A stretch of DNA of 64,000 nucleotides. Source: Octopus vulgaris. Lineage: Eukaryota. The stretch spans positions 28,582,001 to 28,646,000 of the forward strand of contig OX597828.1 of the NCBI GenBank assembly GCA_951406725.2, read 5' to 3'. The notes beneath the pieces are model-generated. The model saw nothing but the letters and a program-made list of their open reading frames with translations, was not told the origin of the DNA and ran no database searches. The translations under genes and the position numbers were made by a program. Positions 1,684-64,000 of this stretch are shown here, piece by piece; position 1 is the stretch's first letter; each line of letters starts with the position of its first letter.

Positions 1684-3120
1684 CTACTTACATTTCATTG
1701 GAAAGGTTGGGGCCGACCTCACCACACATTTGTGGACCCCTTCTTTCTCCTCCTTCTTCGGATAGTCCGGCAAGTTCGCCATATGCCGGATGGCGTTTGG
1801 TTGTCTGTCTTTTAATTGTTTGAACGTTGTTTCCGCAATCCACGCACATCTCTCGTTTCGATCTTTGTATTTGTTGTACAGTCTTGCTGACTGATGCGGA
1901 ACCACAATATCGTTTATGTATTTGTTTTGTGTGTCGAATTCAATTAATATGAGTTCATTTTTTTTGTCTTCTTTTTCTGGGCCAGCTGAGCGGGATTTTT
2001 TTTTTCGTGTCTGTGGTGTGTCTTTGTTTTTATTATTTTTTGTAGGGGATGTGGACGGGGATGATGCACGAATTCTTTTACGAACTGTTGTAAATCCCCC
2101 CTCTGATACCTCCATGGTATCGTCTGGGGTAGCAATAGTTTGTTCAGTAGGCGCCGCAGTTTTTAAGGGGGTGGGAGGTTTTAATAGTGTAGGGGTATGT
2201 GAGTGTGAGGGCTGGGTTTTTTCTTCAGTTTGTTTTGGGGTTGGCACCGTAACAGCAGGAGTGGGATTTTTTGTTTTTGTAGGGGTAGGTGAGTTTGCAA
2301 GGGTAGGGATTTTTTTATTATCTGAGGGGCCTGGTGTCTGCGGTTTCTTTTGCTTGTCTGGACAGTCTACACGAATGTGGCCCTTTTTGCCGCAGGCGTA
2401 ACAGGTGGGTTTTCGGCCTTCGACCTGTACCCCGAGGGCCACGTTCTCGCCCACGAGCACCCTCTCAAGAAGGAGCTGCAGGTCCTCCGGTGTTCCTTGA
2501 ATTATTATATTAATGTCTCGCCCAAGCCAATATAGAGGGGCAGAGCATGTTACTTGTAGTATTTTAATTTTGTCCGTCCTTTTATATAACAGGGCGGCCA
2601 CTACCTCTACCGGATCTGCTTCCGGCGGGGCTTCTGCAATCCTGACCCGGGACGTCCTGCGTCCCCTATAGCTTGGGAAAAGTACCACCTCCTTGGTTTT
2701 TAGGGGGTTCACAGAATGCCCGCGGGCCACCTCTTCCCCCGAGAAGCGGACATCCACAGTGCCATATGCCCGTCCCCTGGCGACGTACACAATGTCCTTC
2801 CAAATCGGGGACAGGCATTTCTCGATGGTGTTTTTTTCAAAGTGTTTGAACCTTCTGCTTTGTGGACAGAAGGTTTTAAACACTACGGTCCGCTTCTCGG
2901 TCTCCACGATACTGGCGGAGGGTGATATTTTAACATCACCACCCTCCTCTTTCATTCTTTTAAATAGCTCGACGAGCTGATTGACATTGATGTCAATGTT
3001 CTCGGTAGCCACTGCGGCTACCGCAGAAAATTTTTTACTACAGTTAACATTGCTCTCCTCAAGAGCACTATTTTCGTGAATAATCTCAACAGACGTTATT
3101 CTGTTGAAATTAGACAACAC
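1684..3120 (-). CDS. LINE ORF1 (gag-like nucleic-acid chaperone with CX2CX4HX4C knuckle and P/T/K-rich tail); start codon uncertain
   Basis: 478-aa ORF with CYACGKKGHIRVDC, directly upstream of ORF2; opens with GTG and the first ATG is about 56 codons in. Confidence 0.88.
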   Translation of the reverse strand: MLSNFNRITSVEIIHENSALEESNVNCSKKFSAVAAVATENIDINVNQLVELFKRMKEEGGDVKISPSASIVETEKRTVVFKTFCPQSRRFKHFEKNTIEKCLSPIWKDIVYVARGRAYGTVDVRFSGEEVARGHSVNPLKTKEVVLFPSYRGRRTSRVRIAEAPPEADPVEVVAALLYKRTDKIKILQVTCSAPLYWLGRDINIIIQGTPEDLQLLLERVLVGENVALGVQVEGRKPTCYACGKKGHIRVDCPDKQKKPQTPGPSDNKKIPTLANSPTPTKTKNPTPAVTVPTPKQTEEKTQPSHSHTPTLLKPPTPLKTAAPTEQTIATPDDTMEVSEGGFTTVRKRIRASSPSTSPTKNNKNKDTPQTRKKKSRSAGPEKEDKKNELILIEFDTQNKYINDIVVPHQSARLYNKYKDRNERCAWIAETTFKQLKDRQPNAIRHMANLPDYPKKEEKEGVHKCVVRSAPTFPMKCK

Positions 3121-3499
3121 AAAAATTACGAATATTGGTTTCCCACAAAACTGGGAAACCTATAGAAAGTTTTTCTTCCAAAGCAGTTCAATAAGTGGTA
3201 AAAAGCAGTTCAAAAAATTTCAATTCCCACCCTCATTCGGGGGGAGGGGCACGAAAATAGTCTGGCAAGACTATATATAGTCACGTAGATAAAAAAAGCC
3301 ACAATGGCTAACAGTTCAACAGTAACAAATTATCCAATTATTCCCCGGTAAAACCGGAGAACAAGACAGTTCAACAACGTTCAGTAGTAAAATTCAACAA
3401 TTAACAACACAGCAAAACTCTTACCGGGAAGAAAACGCGTCCAAACCGTAGTAAGGTAAGCAAAGTCACTCTTCAGTCAGTGAGGTTATCAAGCTACTT

Positions 3500-4970
3500 T
3501 ATTTCAATTATTTTGCCATAAAGGGGACACTACAAAACATGTGGAGACATATAACAATTAAGAATATGTAAAAATAAAATGATACTGTGAGTGACATGAA
3601 AATGAACGTGAGAAAATAAATTAAGTTTATGATAACATGCATGGTATCTGAAAATGAAATATGACGAGTGTGCTACTCACCCCACTCTGAGCAACACCAC
3701 TCGCTGCCTTTGAGTCTGAATTCTTCTCTAATCTCTGGTCTAGTCCTTCTTTTTCCACTCTCACTATCGCTTAAAGACAACATTCTTTCGCAACCTTTTT
3801 CACCGGGGGAGGGGTTTTCTAAATTCTGTGGTGTCTGCTCTTTTTTCTTTTTCTTTTTTTCTTGTGGGGAAAGGGAGTGGGTGGGTCTGGTGTCTGTATG
3901 GGGCGGGTGGGTCTGAGTGGTCTTGGGTGGGATGGAGTTGGACTGGGGTACCATTTCACACTCAGTGTTCTTTCTTTTCTTCCTCTTCTTACTTCTGCTC
4001 TCTGCTACTATCCATTCTTCCTCCTTTCGTCCGTCTTTGTCTTCGTCCTCTTTTTTCTTCTTTGTCTCCGCAACTGGTTCATCTATTTTTTCCTCTATCT
4101 TTTTCTTCTGTAGGGGACAGTGTGCTATAATGTGGCCTTTTTGGCCACATTTAAAGCACCGCGGGGTTCTGCCTTCTACCCATACTCTCAATACTATTTC
4201 TCCCATTGTCACCGTTTCCGCCAAATTTTCCAGCTCCTTCGCCTCCGCTTGTATGATCATTTCCAGTAATTTTCCTTTGTAGCTTCCTTCCTCTGTCTCT
4301 GTGGCTTGGAGGACAGTCACCTCCTCACTTCCAACGAGGACGGCTGCCGCAACCCAAGCCACTTTTATGTCAGGTGGAATTCCTTCTACCCTCACCTTAG
4401 AATTCTTTCTGCCAAGATAGGAGGGTAGAAGTACTAGTTCCTCAGTTTTTACAGTTGTACTTGCCAGCCTCTTTGCCTCCTCTTCTGTTTTAAACTGGAC
4501 AACCACCGTCCCATATCCGCTTCCTTTTGCTATATATGTTACTTCCTTCGAAAGCCCCTTGAGAGCTTTTTCTACTTTTTCCATCTTCATCTGCTCCACC
4601 CTCCTACTCTCCACTGAGTGCACCTTGTAGGTAATTGTCTTCTTTTCCATATTTGCCATAACCGTTTTCGGGGGTAATAACTTCACGTCACTTCCCACCT
4701 TCTGTGTCATCTTATACAGCTCCTTCAGTTCAGTTAGGTCTACTTCCTTTTTCTTTACCTCTGCCACGTCAGCAAAACTTTTTATTTTTTCCAAATGCTG
4801 GTCCATTCTGTTCACCGCCTTAACGAGCTCCTCCTCTGATGTGGACAGTTCGTACTCGCTAAGGTCCGAATACATTATTTTCCACTCGCCAACAAACCGC
4901 TGGCGAGCAGCTCAAAGGATTCTGTCCGCCTAGTCAAAACTCAACACAGTAAACAACTCGACGCATGCGC
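3500..4970 (-). mobile_element. ORF1-only non-autonomous retroelement (HAL1/half-L1-like), 1471 bp
   Basis: About 95-nt leader, single ORF1, AT-rich 3'UTR ending in AATAAA; flanked by GTTATCAAGCTACTT (3485-3499) and GTTAGCAAGCTACTT (4971-4985); no endonuclease or RT. Confidence 0.8.
3673..4875 (-). CDS. ORF1-like gag protein with CCHC zinc knuckle, homologous to 1684..3120
   Basis: 400-aa ATG-initiated ORF with CFKCGQKGHIIAHC. Aligns by eye with the neighbouring ORF1 (YIAKGSGYGTVVVQF/YVARGRAYGTVDVRF; LVLLPSYLGRKNSKVRV/VVLFPSYRGRRTSRVRI; VEGRTPRC/VEGRKPTC). Confidence 0.88.
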   Translation of the reverse strand: MYSDLSEYELSTSEEELVKAVNRMDQHLEKIKSFADVAEVKKKEVDLTELKELYKMTQKVGSDVKLLPPKTVMANMEKKTITYKVHSVESRRVEQMKMEKVEKALKGLSKEVTYIAKGSGYGTVVVQFKTEEEAKRLASTTVKTEELVLLPSYLGRKNSKVRVEGIPPDIKVAWVAAAVLVGSEEVTVLQATETEEGSYKGKLLEMIIQAEAKELENLAETVTMGEIVLRVWVEGRTPRCFKCGQKGHIIAHCPLQKKKIEEKIDEPVAETKKKKEDEDKDGRKEEEWIVAESRSKKRKKRKNTECEMVPQSNSIPPKTTQTHPPHTDTRPTHSLSPQEKKKKKKEQTPQNLENPSPGEKGCERMLSLSDSESGKRRTRPEIREEFRLKGSEWCCSEWGE

Positions 4971-5848: not shown

Positions 5849-7069
5849 TGGTGTAGTGAATAAGCTCTCGTCTAAATAACGTGTAAAGGAAAATAACAAT
5901 GTCGTCTCATTTTAACTTATATATTTACCAAAATTACATGAAAATGTCTTGAAATACTAAAGAGTAAATTGATTCAATAAAATCACCATTGGCTTCAACC
6001 ACGACCTCCAGACAACATCGGAGTCTTCTGCAACTCTTCTGGGCGGTCTCCTATTTTAAGTTGGTGAATGCTGCCATAATCCTAGCCTTCACTTCATCTT
6101 CGGTAAGTAGTTTGCTTACGTACCACATGGTTCCGGGTTCAGTCCCACTGCGTGGCACCTTGGGCAAGTGTCTTCTACTATAGCCTCGGGCCGACCAAAG
6201 CCTTGTGAGTGGATTTGGTCGACGGAAACTGAAAGAAGCCCGTCGTATATATGTATATATGTATGTGTGTGTGTGTATGTTTGTCTGTGTTTGTCCCACC
6301 AACATCGCTTGACAACCGATGGTGGTGTTTTTACGTCCCAGTAACTTAGCGGTTCAGCCAAAGAGACCGATAGAATAAGTACTAGGCTTACAAAGAATAA
6401 GTCCTGGGGTCGATTTGCTCGACTAAAGGCGGTGCTCCAGCATGGCCGCAGTCAAATGACTGAAACACGTAAAAGAGTAGGAGTTTTGTTGGTCTCTCAC
6501 TCAACTGCGCCCCACACATATTAATCAAGGGGCTTGCAGTCTGGGGAGTTAGGTGGCCAGATGTTAGGGTTGATGTGGTCGCAGAAATTGTCTGACAGCC
6601 ATGACTAGGTTCTGCTTGTGTGGCATAGTGCAGAGTCCTGTTGCCAGACATAGCAGTCACCCTCTTGACCCAAGGCAGCACTACCTCCTCCGGGCACTTG
6701 ATGTAGGCCACCGTGTTGAACCTAAGGCCATGTGGGAAGATGAATGGAGGCATAACGTCGCCATCACTAGTGATCACTCCAAACACCATGATGTTGACTG
6801 GATGTTTGATTTTCATCACTCTCGATCCATGTCTTCCGATTGACACCCAAACACTCTGAAATGTCCGTATTGGAGCTTCCAGCGCGAATGCCAAGCAGAA
6901 TTGCATGTCGTTTCCAAATATCTGACAGAGTGAATTGCATCTTGGTGTTGTTTTACTCACAGACAGTGCCCAACTGATCCTACTATACTGTGTAGTCAAC
7001 AAAATCAAAAACAATGCGCATGAGCAAAATTAAAAATATAAGATGGCGATAATTTACCTATCGCACCCT
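5849..7069 (-). pseudogene. Decayed, internally deleted Tc1/mariner (maT/DD37D-like) transposon split by a SINE
   Basis: KHPVNIMVFGVITSDG..YVWQQDSA..WPPNSPDCKPLD*YVWG (6480-6820) and C-terminal DEVKARIMAAF..LEVVVEANG (5985-6100); stops and frameshifts; 36 residues between the 2nd and 3rd Asp in this copy; diverged TIR-like ends. Confidence 0.85.
6101..6479 (+). mobile_element. SINE family A, 5'-truncated, inserted in the mariner
   Basis: Near-identical to 24344-24720; ends in a TAAAAGAG-type tail. Confidence 0.9.
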
Positions 7070-59932: not shown

Positions 59933-60207
59933 TACACAGAAACACACACACAGAAGCGTGGCTGTATGGTTAAGCTTACTTCTCAACAATATACGTAGTT
60001 TCCGGTTCAGTTCCGTTTTACTATAGGCCCCGACCTACCAAAACCTTGTGAATAGATTTTGTAGACGGACACTGAAACAAGAAAGAAAGAATGTGTGTGT
60101 GTGTGTATGTGTTGTTCGTATGTATGCGCGCGAATGTGTGTGTGTGTGTATATGTTTGTCTCTGTCTCTCTTTTTTGACATCGCGTCATAGTTGTAAAGG
60201 AGCGTCT

Positions 60208-60409
60208 CTCTTTACTCTTTTACTCTTTTACTTGTTTCAGTCATTTGACTGTGGCCATGCTGGAGCACCGCCTTTAGTCTAGCGAATCGACCCCAGGACT
60301 TATTCTTTGTAAGCCTAGTACTTATTCTATCGGTTTCTTTTGCCGAACCGCTAAGTTACGGGGACGTAAACACACCAGCATCGGTTGTCAAGCGATGTTG
60401 GGGGGACAA

Positions 60410-60444
<35 letters not shown>

Positions 60445-60631
60445 CATGATGATGATGATACATATATACGACGGGCTTCTTTCAGTTTCCGTCTACCAAA
60501 TCCACTCACAAGGCTTTAGTCGGCCCGAGGCTATAGTACAAAACACTTACCCAAGGTGCCACGCAGTGGAACTGAACCCGGAACCATGTGGTTGGTAAGC
60601 AAGCTACTTACCACACAGCCACTCCTACGCC
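60208..60631 (-). mobile_element. SINE family A, full length
   Basis: Reverse complement of 24344-24720. Confidence 0.92.
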
Positions 60632-60959
60632 TATGCGTCTCTGTTATTTGTTTCCATTTTTCTGTGAAAACATGTCTAAGGAGAAATAGCTTGATTGAAA
60701 ACAGGTGAGGGTTGGCGACAGGAAGGGAAACCGGCCTTAGAAAATTTACCTCAATAAAATTCCTCCTGACCCATACAAGTTCGGAAAAGTGGACGTTAAA
60801 CGATTATAATTATTATTATCATTATTGATGAAGAATATGAAGATGATGCCATTGTTGAGTTACAAAATGACAAATCAAAGTTTGTACGAAATACAGTTAC
60901 AATGCAATATGAAACTTTCTATACTGTGAAAGGTATTGCTGTGTTTTTCCATCACATTA

Positions 60960-61200
60960 TCCATCCATCCATCCATCTTATCCACCCACTATATCTAGGA
61001 GGGTCGCGGAGGTAGAATCCTCAGGTCGCTCCTTCATAGGGCCATATCAAAAGTAACCATTCTTACACATTCTTGCTAGATCCCATACAAGTTCGGTCCG
61101 AGACTCTATGGGTATTTATCTAACCTGTGTGGCTAATAAAGAAGCATATCTAACCACCTCGCTCTAAGTCTACCCCTTGGTCTCCTGTCATTTGGCCCGG
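60960..61200 (-). pseudogene. Decayed RTE (Expander-like) 3' end
   Basis: (GGAT)n tail and AAGGGGTAGACTTAGAGCGAGGTGGTTAGAT (RGR.RARWLD). Confidence 0.5.
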
Positions 61201-61679
61201 CTTGAAGAATCCGTCTTGCGATCCATTTTTGCTGACGCAGGAATCCAAATTTAGACCCAAACTGCATAAACAAATGGAAGCGAAGCAGTTTGAAGAGTTA
61301 CGGCGACTTTTTGTCAAATTTCGAACCAAATATGGCAGAACCTGCTACGGGTCGCCAGCAACAGAGATCACATCAATAAACAACTCCTGCTATCTAGAAT
61401 ATTCTTATTTTAATCTTATTATTAAACAGTGTGCCTACAAAGAAACTACACTCGCACTCTTTTGTATTTAATGTTAACTGAACAAAAACTGGGATAAATG
61501 TTATACACGAGACAAAGCTAAAACTAAGAAAGGAAAAGAAATTCTGGCAAGATATTAGGGTAAATTTGGGGTGCAATTTATACACGAGTAAATTCAGTGT
61601 TTTTTTTTTTGTCCTCTTTGATGAGCTAACGTCGAAGTAGTGTGGTTTGTACAAATTGTTTACATCTATCTATAACAGA

Positions 61680-62100
61680 AATTTTTAGATATATTCTGTG
61701 GAATTCTGCTATGTCGATGTGAGTGAATTTGTACTTTTTGTTCATGCAGTTGTTGAATCAATCGGTTATAGAAGAACCGTTGTTTCATTGTGTTAGCCTT
61801 GTTGCCTGTCAAATTCTGGAGTTAATATCTTCTATGAGATTTATTTACAATGCCTAATCATACTTTACTGAGTTAAGCAGTATACGTTCATGATCTGTTA
61901 AAAACATTGCCTTGTGGTCTTCCAGGGTGATGTATGGTTTCCACTTTGCCAAACATTCTGTTCTATCTTCTAACTGTAAACTTGTGGCTAATTCCGGCAC
62001 ACCCTTTGTCAATAGCGTTATGTACTTTGGATTATGCTTCATGACACGTTTTTTTTGCTAGGAGGAATTTTGGTGGATACTTTTGTCCGTGATACATACA
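61680..62100 (-). pseudogene. Penelope-like (Neptune/Naiad-type) reverse transcriptase fragment
   Basis: LQLEDRTECLAKWKPYITLEDHKAMF..LLNSVK..RLTQ*NNGSSITD*F..KFTHIDIAEFH, resembling the ITLKDHK/RLINPAK/QWRNT/FDIVEFYPS motifs of this PLE group. Confidence 0.7.
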
Positions 62101-62281
62101 AGTACGTTGTGTTTCGATTACAAGCATAAAAATTAGTGTTTGTATTGTAAGCTGTGCGTATAATATTTAACACGCAATTTTTTTTTTACGTTGATGTTAT
62201 ACTTCACATTTTCCCTAGATGGAATTGCGAACTCTGCAGCCGACTGTTTCTTGCATGTGTACACGTGCACGCATGGGTTTG

Positions 62282-62363
<82 letters not shown>

Positions 62364-62981
62364 CATCCATCCATCCATCCATCCATCCTATCTATCTATC
62401 TGCCTATCTATCTATCTATCTATCTATCTTATATATCTATCTATCTATCTATTACCCATCCTTTATTATTTTCCCCTCTTTCTTGATTGTCCTGAAATCT
62501 CTCTCTCTCTCTCTCTCTTTCCCCCTCTTTGCTTTTCTTCCTCTCGTTCCCTCTTTCCCCAAAAAACAAAAATACTTTTCTTCTCTTCTAAACAAAGCAA
62601 AAACAAACACCCAAAAAAGCCATCCGATTCATTTAAATGAACAACGAAAACTTCTGTTTTCTCCCATTTTGATTTTGTCTTGACGAGTTCGATAAAAGAA
62701 CGCAAGCGCTAATAAAGAATTATCCAAAATTTTGCCTGCCTCCTTTTTTATCTCTCTCTATATCAAATCGTTAGTCTGACAAAATATATTCCGTTTCGCC
62801 TGTGGCTCATTGGGAAGAATATAATTTGTTGGACTGACGATTATTGATGAAGTATTAGTATTTATTCTCAGACTTACCATATGGTACCTAATTCAACGTT
62901 GCTGGACATAGATTATAATTTATGTCCGGCTACTTAACATAGAGTCAAAAATTAATTATTTTTGAACTTCTCACCCCATTG

Positions 62982-63039
<58 letters not shown>

Positions 63040-63095
63040 CGGAGATGTACTCGCATAGCAAGTAATTTGATCTGAGATCGTGTGCTGAAACGAAA

Positions 63096-63355
63096 ACAAT
63101 TGCAGCGTGGGAGGTGTTTATAAGCCATTTAAGAAACACACAAAAGCCGTTCGATTCACTCCAACATTTAAGTTTAATTTGTCAAAATATTTTCGTCGCT
63201 AAAATCCGCGACCTGTTCAGGACTTTGTCAGTGAACAGGTCGCGGATTTTAGCGACGAAAATATTTTGACAAATTAAACTTAAATGTTGGAGTGAATCGA
63301 ACGGCTTTTGTGTGTTTCTTAAATGGCTTATAAACACCTCCCACGCTGCAATTGT
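63096..63355. repeat. Perfect inverted repeat with 124-bp arms and 12-nt spacer
   Basis: 63096-63219 is the exact reverse complement of 63232-63355. Confidence 0.97.
63224..63273 (+). ncRNA. Putative minimal type I hammerhead ribozyme with G3-C8 core
   Basis: TTTGTCA-GTGAACA-G-GTCGC ggatttta GCGAC-GAA-AATATT-T-TGACAAA: 7-bp stem I, 5-bp stem II, palindromic stem III. Confidence 0.6.
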
Positions 63356-63572
63356 ATATATATATACAAGATAAGAAAATGGAGAAATACATCTAACTCA
63401 AATTAGTAATTTGTGGTAAATCATTTTACTTTTGCCCATATAATACAGTAAATGAATTGATTGCATCGCAATCATTAACATTTATGTATTAACTTTGTTG
63501 GGTACTTCACTAGCAGTATATTGGATATATGTTATCCCATGGAGGGTTGCATTTACAACCCCTATCTAAATT

Positions 63573-63622
<50 letters not shown>

Positions 63623-63623
<1 letters not shown>

Positions 63624-63829
63624 CGGGAAGCTTTATGAAAATAGACAAAAGACGAAGGCAGGTGGAAAACAAACAAACAATTGTATTAGTATGGCGCTCA
63701 GGAAATATAAATAAAACAAGTCTTTAACGTTTCGAGCCTACGCTCTTCAACAGAAAGATACACAGAGAGAAAAAAAACACAGAAAGAAGGAGAGAAATGC
63801 GTGCAGTAACTAACGAATCAACATGGCGA
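63623..63829 (-). mobile_element. PLE terminal fragment with hammerhead-like motif
   Basis: TCTTT-CTGTTGA-A-GAGC gtag GCTC-GAAACGTT-AAAGA at 63721-63758; (TA)n on both sides. Confidence 0.65.
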
Positions 63830-64000
63830 ATATATATATATATATATATATCTTTACGATAGTTCAGTGCTCACAGATTGCTCACTTGGTATTTGTCGTT
63901 GATTCTTGTTGACCATTACATAACTGACCACTACTAGCATGGAGGAGGTCGTGTGGTCAATTTTTTTTATATTTTTGTAATTCGAAGGAATTGTATTTAA

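Follow-up and report, generated by a model that had tools for sequence, protein, structure and literature searches.

A miniature head-to-head Penelope-like insertion in Octopus vulgaris, likely built from two cDNAs, with a conserved G3-C8 hammerhead fold

The palindrome at 63,038-63,355 of the window (the whole 64,000-nt stretch of Octopus vulgaris DNA that was analysed, positions 28,582,001 to 28,646,000 of contig OX597828.1) is probably one miniature head-to-head insertion of a Penelope-like element (PLE), likely assembled from two cDNAs and containing a conserved G3-C8 hammerhead fold that is predicted to cleave. The architecture of such insertions is already known, the core variant appears to be new, and the insertions provide useful mechanistic evidence.

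Table 1. Features of the palindrome and its flanks. Element positions (+) are counted from the A of the AG at which most short copies begin (+1).
Feature	Position in window	Strand	Basis or remark
(TA)n target microsatellite, left flank	62984..63037	no strand	Sequence; TA runs flank 24 of 41 short-plus-long pairs, on one side or both
58-nt tail, element +148 to +205 (ORF codons 12-30)	63038..63095	-	Distal start site B lies at its outer end
Inverted arm, element +24 to +147	63096..63219	-	Hammerhead without the stem I 5' strand and G3; predicted non-folding
Direct arm, element +12 to +147	63220..63355	+	Contains the 12-nt spacer (63220-63231) and stops at start site A, the proximal one
Minimal type I hammerhead motif	63224..63273	+	Fold and comparison; numbering by comparison with PMC4209133
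Hammerhead stem I	63224-63230/63267-63273	+	7 bp
Hammerhead core GTGAACA, with G3 and C8	63231-63237	+	
Hammerhead extra G	63238	+	
Hammerhead stem II	63239-63243/63252-63256	+	5 bp
Hammerhead GAAA	63257-63260	+	
Hammerhead palindromic stem III, AATATT	63260-63265	+	
Hammerhead U17	63266	+	Predicted cut between 63266 and 63267
First 11 codons of the element ORF	63323..63355	+	ATG (+115) shares the reading frame of the RT ORF; the sister family has a homologous N-terminus
(TA)n target, right flank	63356..63366	no strand	Any target duplication is masked by the repeat

The two 124-nt arms (63096-63219 and 63232-63355) are 100% complementary across a 12-nt spacer and are bounded on both sides by (TA)n runs, exactly as an initial sequence-only reading had described. 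In addition, 63038-63095 is element sequence, forming an inverted tail. This 58-nt tail is confined to the inverted arm and is not found on the direct arm; its end at site B is the common end of most long arms, and at three loci (L139, L141 and L147) the segment runs in frame into the reverse transcriptase (RT) ORF. The left part of the palindrome consists of element +24 to +205 in inverted orientation, and the spacer (+12 to +23) belongs to the right arm. The direct arm is an exact match to arms at L031, L032, L092 and L104, and the left and right parts are each identical to L031 and L032. Neither microhomology nor filler was seen at the junction. The palindrome is a complete miniature head-to-head insertion and not, as had been supposed, the terminus of a larger one. 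With both arms matching other copies letter for letter, it appears to be a very recent Penelope-like insertion, in line with the earlier proposal. The accompanying statement that a transcript would be perfect dsRNA is true by construction, an RNA from either strand giving a 124-bp duplex (computed at -234 kcal/mol). The same duplex would lock the ribozyme, and the ribozyme of this copy is likely silent because it would be sequestered there.

Elsewhere in the window, a pair of related ORFs (491 and 412 aa) carrying a CCHC zinc knuckle was observed at 1684-3159 and 3673-4911 (-), and we take these to resemble LINE ORF1 proteins. A fragment at 6388-7029 (-) presumably resembles a Tc1/mariner transposase, and the right flank of the palindrome (63372-63560) is itself a very high-copy repeat, as judged by depth.

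Sequence comparison assigns the stretch to a young and abundant PLE with an RT, a C-terminal GIY-YIG domain and a Nematis-like linker. The 133-nt right arm returned 957 candidates in the 2.8-Gb genome, and among the 50 matches listed 43 were full-length and identical; exact matches genome-wide numbered 6,239 for a pattern of the hammerhead core and 10,593 for a start-codon pattern. An RT/GIY-YIG ORF sits between the same arms at L031, L032, L087 and L104. Its continuation was traced by walking upstream (a tail-pattern search gave mainly flank DNA), and it extends over about 1,000 aa or more and contains YVDD and YIGETSR. Pfam and PDB sequence searches with the element ORF itself found nothing; its nearest annotated homologues carry RVT_1 and GIY-YIG (E values of 4e-9 to 3e-5). 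Along the element, the hammerhead (+16 to +65, predicted cut +58/59) is followed by the ATG (+115), end A (+147) and end B (+205). In keeping with EN+ PLEs, a single ORF combines the RT with the C-terminal GIY-YIG endonuclease, the pLTR includes the ORF start, an inverted 5' copy is present with a tail at one end, and insertion is accompanied by a target-site duplication in AT-rich or (TA)n targets. The EN+ PLE insertions with inverted pLTRs described for A. vaga Pen2a (PMC3846280) and by Craig et al. 2021 (PMC8557442) likewise have an inverted 5'-truncated copy with a tail at one end, a pLTR and tail covering the first ORF codons, a target duplication and AT-rich or (TA)n targets. The octopus family differs from the insertions in those accounts in its tail length (58 nt versus 30-40) and in forming thousands of miniature units of about 300 bp. 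Compared by eye with the rows of Figure S2 of PMC8557442, the octopus protein shares with the Nematis PLEs a C-terminal GIY-YIG, a GETxR motif and a short CX2-5CxxC linker before GIY-YIG, and by this comparison the linker resembles the Nematis rows rather than Neptune.

Four RT fragments of the family were also observed at G000:C23:13059096-13104288, spaced about 12.5, 12.5 and 20 kb, which suggests a large tandem array. A 73%-identical stretch of this RT, either exonised or mis-annotated, lies within an octopus protein model annotated as a dynein regulatory complex subunit 6-like isoform.

As the sequence-only reading had proposed, the spacer and right arm together form a type I hammerhead, in which stem I (7 bp) and stem II (5 bp) fold and GTGAACA, the extra G, GAAA and AATATT are all present; a second fold bore out that G3 and the 5' strand of stem I are missing from the inverted copy. 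The fold of 63222-63276 has a z of -3.6, with 2 of 200 shuffles as good. Its core reads GUGAACA and not the literal CUGANGA, and a Watson-Crick 3-8 pair, U4 G5 A6 A9, GAAA, U16.1 and H17 are in place. An Rfam scan of 60000-64000 (E<=10) gave no hammerhead match, RF00163 included, and returned only hairpin miRNA models below their cut-offs. Far from being a rare core variant, as first described, G3-C8 is by these counts the consensus of a family with thousands of copies, occurring in 94 of the first 100 of the 6,239 core matches; loop II varies within the family while the stems hold. The G3-C8 hammerhead is predicted to self-cleave, and U17 together with a 2-bp stem III would predict slow cutting. 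Cofolding of two RNA copies of the motif gave no dimeric fold, the AAUAUU duplex alone being worth -0.2 kcal/mol.

In metazoan PLEs, hammerheads of the minimal type I (Cervera and de la Pena 2014, PMC4209133) also lie in the pLTR upstream of the ATG and have an extra nucleotide between 9 and 10.1, G10.1-C11.1 and a palindromic stem III, with U17 being common. In Figure S3 of that paper, C3-G8 occurs throughout, except for U3-A8 in two S. mansoni sequences and U3/G8 in one from S. kowalevskii; unlike in octopus, G3-C8 is absent from that figure. Natural U3-A8 hammerheads have been published (PMC3088659, PMC4209133), and G3-C8 is known from the sources consulted only as an engineered variant (PMC11167929, PMC3884650). 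No natural G3-C8 was found in that figure (PMC4209133) or in the largely open-access literature searched. The natural G3-C8 core is apparently undescribed, and its novelty is provisional. Variants of PLE hammerheads have reportedly been studied by Lunse et al. in 2017.

A minority of copies carries G3-G8: a pattern allowing C or G at position 3 with G8 gave 242 matches, the first 100 of which were all G3-G8. These copies (L186-L205) fall mostly into older loop classes and are predicted to be non-cutting, yet they have multiplied. A role of G3-G8 as the evolutionary intermediate was not supported, the oldest loop class containing about 75 of 100 G3-C8, 6 of 100 G8 and no C3-G8. Given this amplified minority and the C at position 9 in a sister family, catalysis may be weakly selected. 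Another abundant repeat (L317-L335) was seen to contain a hammerhead with the canonical CUGANGA core and AATAAA after it; in some copies stem II has a long insert.

The sister family has 54% protein identity to the first, a 1,312-aa ORF and 3,803 pattern matches. Its hammerhead, at the same element position, has C3-G8 in 98 of 100 matches and C at position 9 in 94 of 100, and the C3-G8 bears out the earlier suggestion that G3-C8 is a compensatory pair; A9 was observed in 3 of 100. In an alignment of four family and three sister rows, chosen by hand, 94.8% of the 77 cells were paired, against 21-46% in slid controls, and 4 of 11 pairs had changed on both sides, one each in stem I, stem II, stem III and the 3-8 pair. 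This stem covariation represents two families and one lineage split, with only 3 bp of stem I in register; these two were the only families recovered when a third from the clade was sought. U4 G5 A6, G10.1-C11.1, GAAA and U16.1 are invariant between the families. As compensated changes were found in all three stems and the 3-8 pair is swapped, it was therefore concluded that the fold is conserved, with three helices around the core as in type I hammerheads and covariation between two families only. The sister ORF shares 98% identity with a protein named Octopus vulgaris, and many uninterrupted ORFs of about 1,310 aa were seen in this family (e.g. L296:1942-5877, at G000:C15:42.99 Mb). The N-terminal half of the sister ORF contains an Asn-rich insert, as noted for rotifer Penelopes (PMC3846280).

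A survey of 120 loci on contig C1 (0.2-44 Mb), chosen by core and start-codon patterns, yielded 164 arm matches and 54 head-to-head pairs, seven of which were excluded, being duplicates of a single insertion within a larger repeat. Of the 47 pairs kept, 41 combine one A-ended arm with one B-ended arm that is 58 nt longer and bears the tail; one pair was B+B and five had an irregular end. Unpaired arms numbered 56 (37 B, 16 A and three other), and kilobase insertions obey the same A+B end rule. The flanks of pairs are non-paralogous at the junction. At unique non-TA sites an 11-15-nt target duplication was found in 15 of 17 A+B pairs, compared with 10 of 272 mismatched-flank controls, and each head-to-head pair was therefore taken to be a single event. 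Opposite-strand joints of the family are present in contigs of independent runs; at the locus of the palindrome itself (28645038-28645355 of the contig), the contigs of three public runs end within (TA)n and show neither the junction nor an empty allele. One old palindrome was observed to have multiplied as a passenger of a larger repeat on C1 (L176, L179, L230, L231, L233, L234, L239 and L256).

Junction positions in the pairs range from -19 to +109; they are concentrated at the 5' terminus of the RNA (+1), and the cut site is avoided. In 30 of the 41 pairs, and in 24 of the 33 anchored on the start codon, whose selection needs no intact ribozyme, an arm extends to +5 or beyond. The tail-less A arm extends further 5' in 29 of the 41 pairs (22 of the 33 start-codon-anchored pairs) and the tail-bearing arm in 12. 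None of 82 arms was placed at +56 to +61, around the predicted cut; the junction of L136 lies within the 7-nt stem I identity and is readable as +59. Because the arms run through the cut site, the template was taken to be uncleaved RNA, and the hinge likely lies near the ribozyme because 15 nt separate the latter from the 5' terminus of the RNA. Of the 71 distinct arms that lack the upstream genomic sequence, 38 terminate at the AG, 25 of them with a preceding G that replaces a T or C of the element and occurs also in solo copies inside (TA)n. We infer that this extra G ahead of the +1 AG is a copied cap. Alternatively, it could be the end of a short exon, the upstream sequence looking like a branch point and acceptor, a motif that ends at +2 of the element. 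Some PLEs have a spliceosomal intron in the pLTR. No GAG/GT donor with a convincing consensus was found in the 985 nt upstream of the element, and no spliced joint was listed among family sequences in contigs of independent runs. Contigs of presumed RNA runs hold family sequence, and their A>G sites include subfamily variants common to another run. At L141:1146-1169, a conserved branch point, pyrimidine tract and AG were observed to end exactly at the inferred RNA start; from its sequence, this motif could serve read-through transcripts as a splice acceptor.

When both loops were readable, 3 of 38 pairs (all loci) joined the 8-nt and 9-nt loop II subfamilies and 2 of 38 joined G8 and C8, the G8 loci having been chosen for having G8; a fourth mixed-loop pair (L183) was seen by alignment. 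Mixed pairs therefore need two templates or later conversion, and discordant pairs could also stem from ectopic conversion. The other 35 of the 38 pairs share a loop class, and L164, L259 and L263 share rare variants in both arms, a pattern compatible with double copying of a single RNA, with a single source locus, or with later conversion between arms.

In the proposed mechanism, the GIY-YIG domain would cut both strands of an AT-rich target about 12 nt apart. Each 3' end would prime reverse transcription on element RNA, one at site A (+147) and the other at site B (+205), and both cDNAs would run toward the capped RNA 5' end (+1), their ends then being joined bluntly, via microhomology, or with filler. 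The two cDNAs are likely separate copies of the first ~200 nt of the element RNA. If both were made on one RNA, the A-primed cDNA running ahead would explain its longer reach; alternatively, two RNAs could have served as templates. Long insertions would use the same start sites in the downstream pLTR. This model agrees with how PAc, a Poseidon element of Anolis, behaves in vitro (Frangieh et al. 2024, PMC11167929) but disagrees with the self-priming put forward in PMC3846280. As reported for PAc, two internal RT start sites bracket a tail inside the ORF start, both strands are cut and extended with uncleaved RNA as the template, and a dimer is predicted (PMC11167929). PAc belongs to a different clade, however, and its C3G/G8C is an engineered rescue, whereas the octopus G3-C8 is natural and the octopus sites are 58 nt apart. 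A broader joint claim, which we put forward tentatively as possible but short of probable, is that an octopus Penelope has disseminated thousands of copies of a G3-C8 hammerhead that is natural and active, and that the palindromes represent dimeric integration, with two RNAs, two fixed start sites and one double-strand cut. The two RNAs would then sometimes come from different source loci, and the hammerhead would be invisible to CUGANGA and UUGANAA descriptors.

It was also considered that the cDNA (or antisense RNA, PMC3846280) folds at a small hairpin near the ribozyme and copies itself, fold-back priming having earlier been thought to be hinted at by a hinge at the ribozyme. This would account for the identical arms and the weak 3-bp hairpin in the spacer of this copy, for the concordance of most pairs (some with shared rare variants), for the pairs in which the tail-bearing arm lies further 5' (12 of 41), and for the inverted filler in some junctions (L169, L185 and L219). 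In this palindrome, however, as in 29 of the 41 pairs, the spacer belongs to the arm without a tail, whose cDNA could not have served as template for the 58 nt of the tail. Furthermore, some palindromes join different subfamilies, the extra G stands at the sense 5' end, and the junctions spread over 130 nt, clustering at +1 and away from the cut site. Such fold-back is considered improbable, and the octopus evidence favours two cDNAs over the self-priming proposed in PMC3846280. That the palindrome is an artefact of assembly or chimeric reads, or the product of two separate insertions into a single (TA)n site, would be in keeping with a junction that is unbridged in public-run contigs and with (TA)n flanks, which break short contigs. 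This explanation is very hard to credit, given that the ends are asymmetric and element-defined, that 41 of 47 pairs obey one rule, that target duplications are shared, and that opposite-strand joints occur in contigs of independent runs.

Insertion by two cDNAs could equally proceed with a hammerhead that is dead or non-cutting, retained for example as a protein-binding or translation element, and with a drifting core. The amplified G3-G8 copies, the A9-to-C change in the sister family and the uncleaved templates are consistent with this, as are the reports that HHR mutants of PAc still transpose in vitro and that no RNA ends occur at the cut site (PMC11167929). The 3-8 pairing nevertheless survives a double change, the core residues named above are invariant, and C3G/G8C partly rescues cleavage in a PLE hammerhead in the same report (PMC11167929), and we regard a dead hammerhead as rather unlikely. 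A conserved fold that is predicted to cleave, within a single insertion, remains the preferred reading.

With G-C added to C-G and U-A, the natural 3-8 pairings would now be complete, and surveys that look for the usual ribozyme core would overlook entire families. Numbering in the thousands, the miniature palindromes provide countable predictions on how Penelope inverted repeats and tails form (the A+B rule, the ~12-nt stagger, mixed arms and the cap-like G), and they argue against the published self-priming idea. Dimeric integration, if true, would account for how Penelope elements generally come to have inverted repeats and tails. For the octopus, an animal with heavy RNA editing, the miniature palindromes may be a source of long dsRNA.
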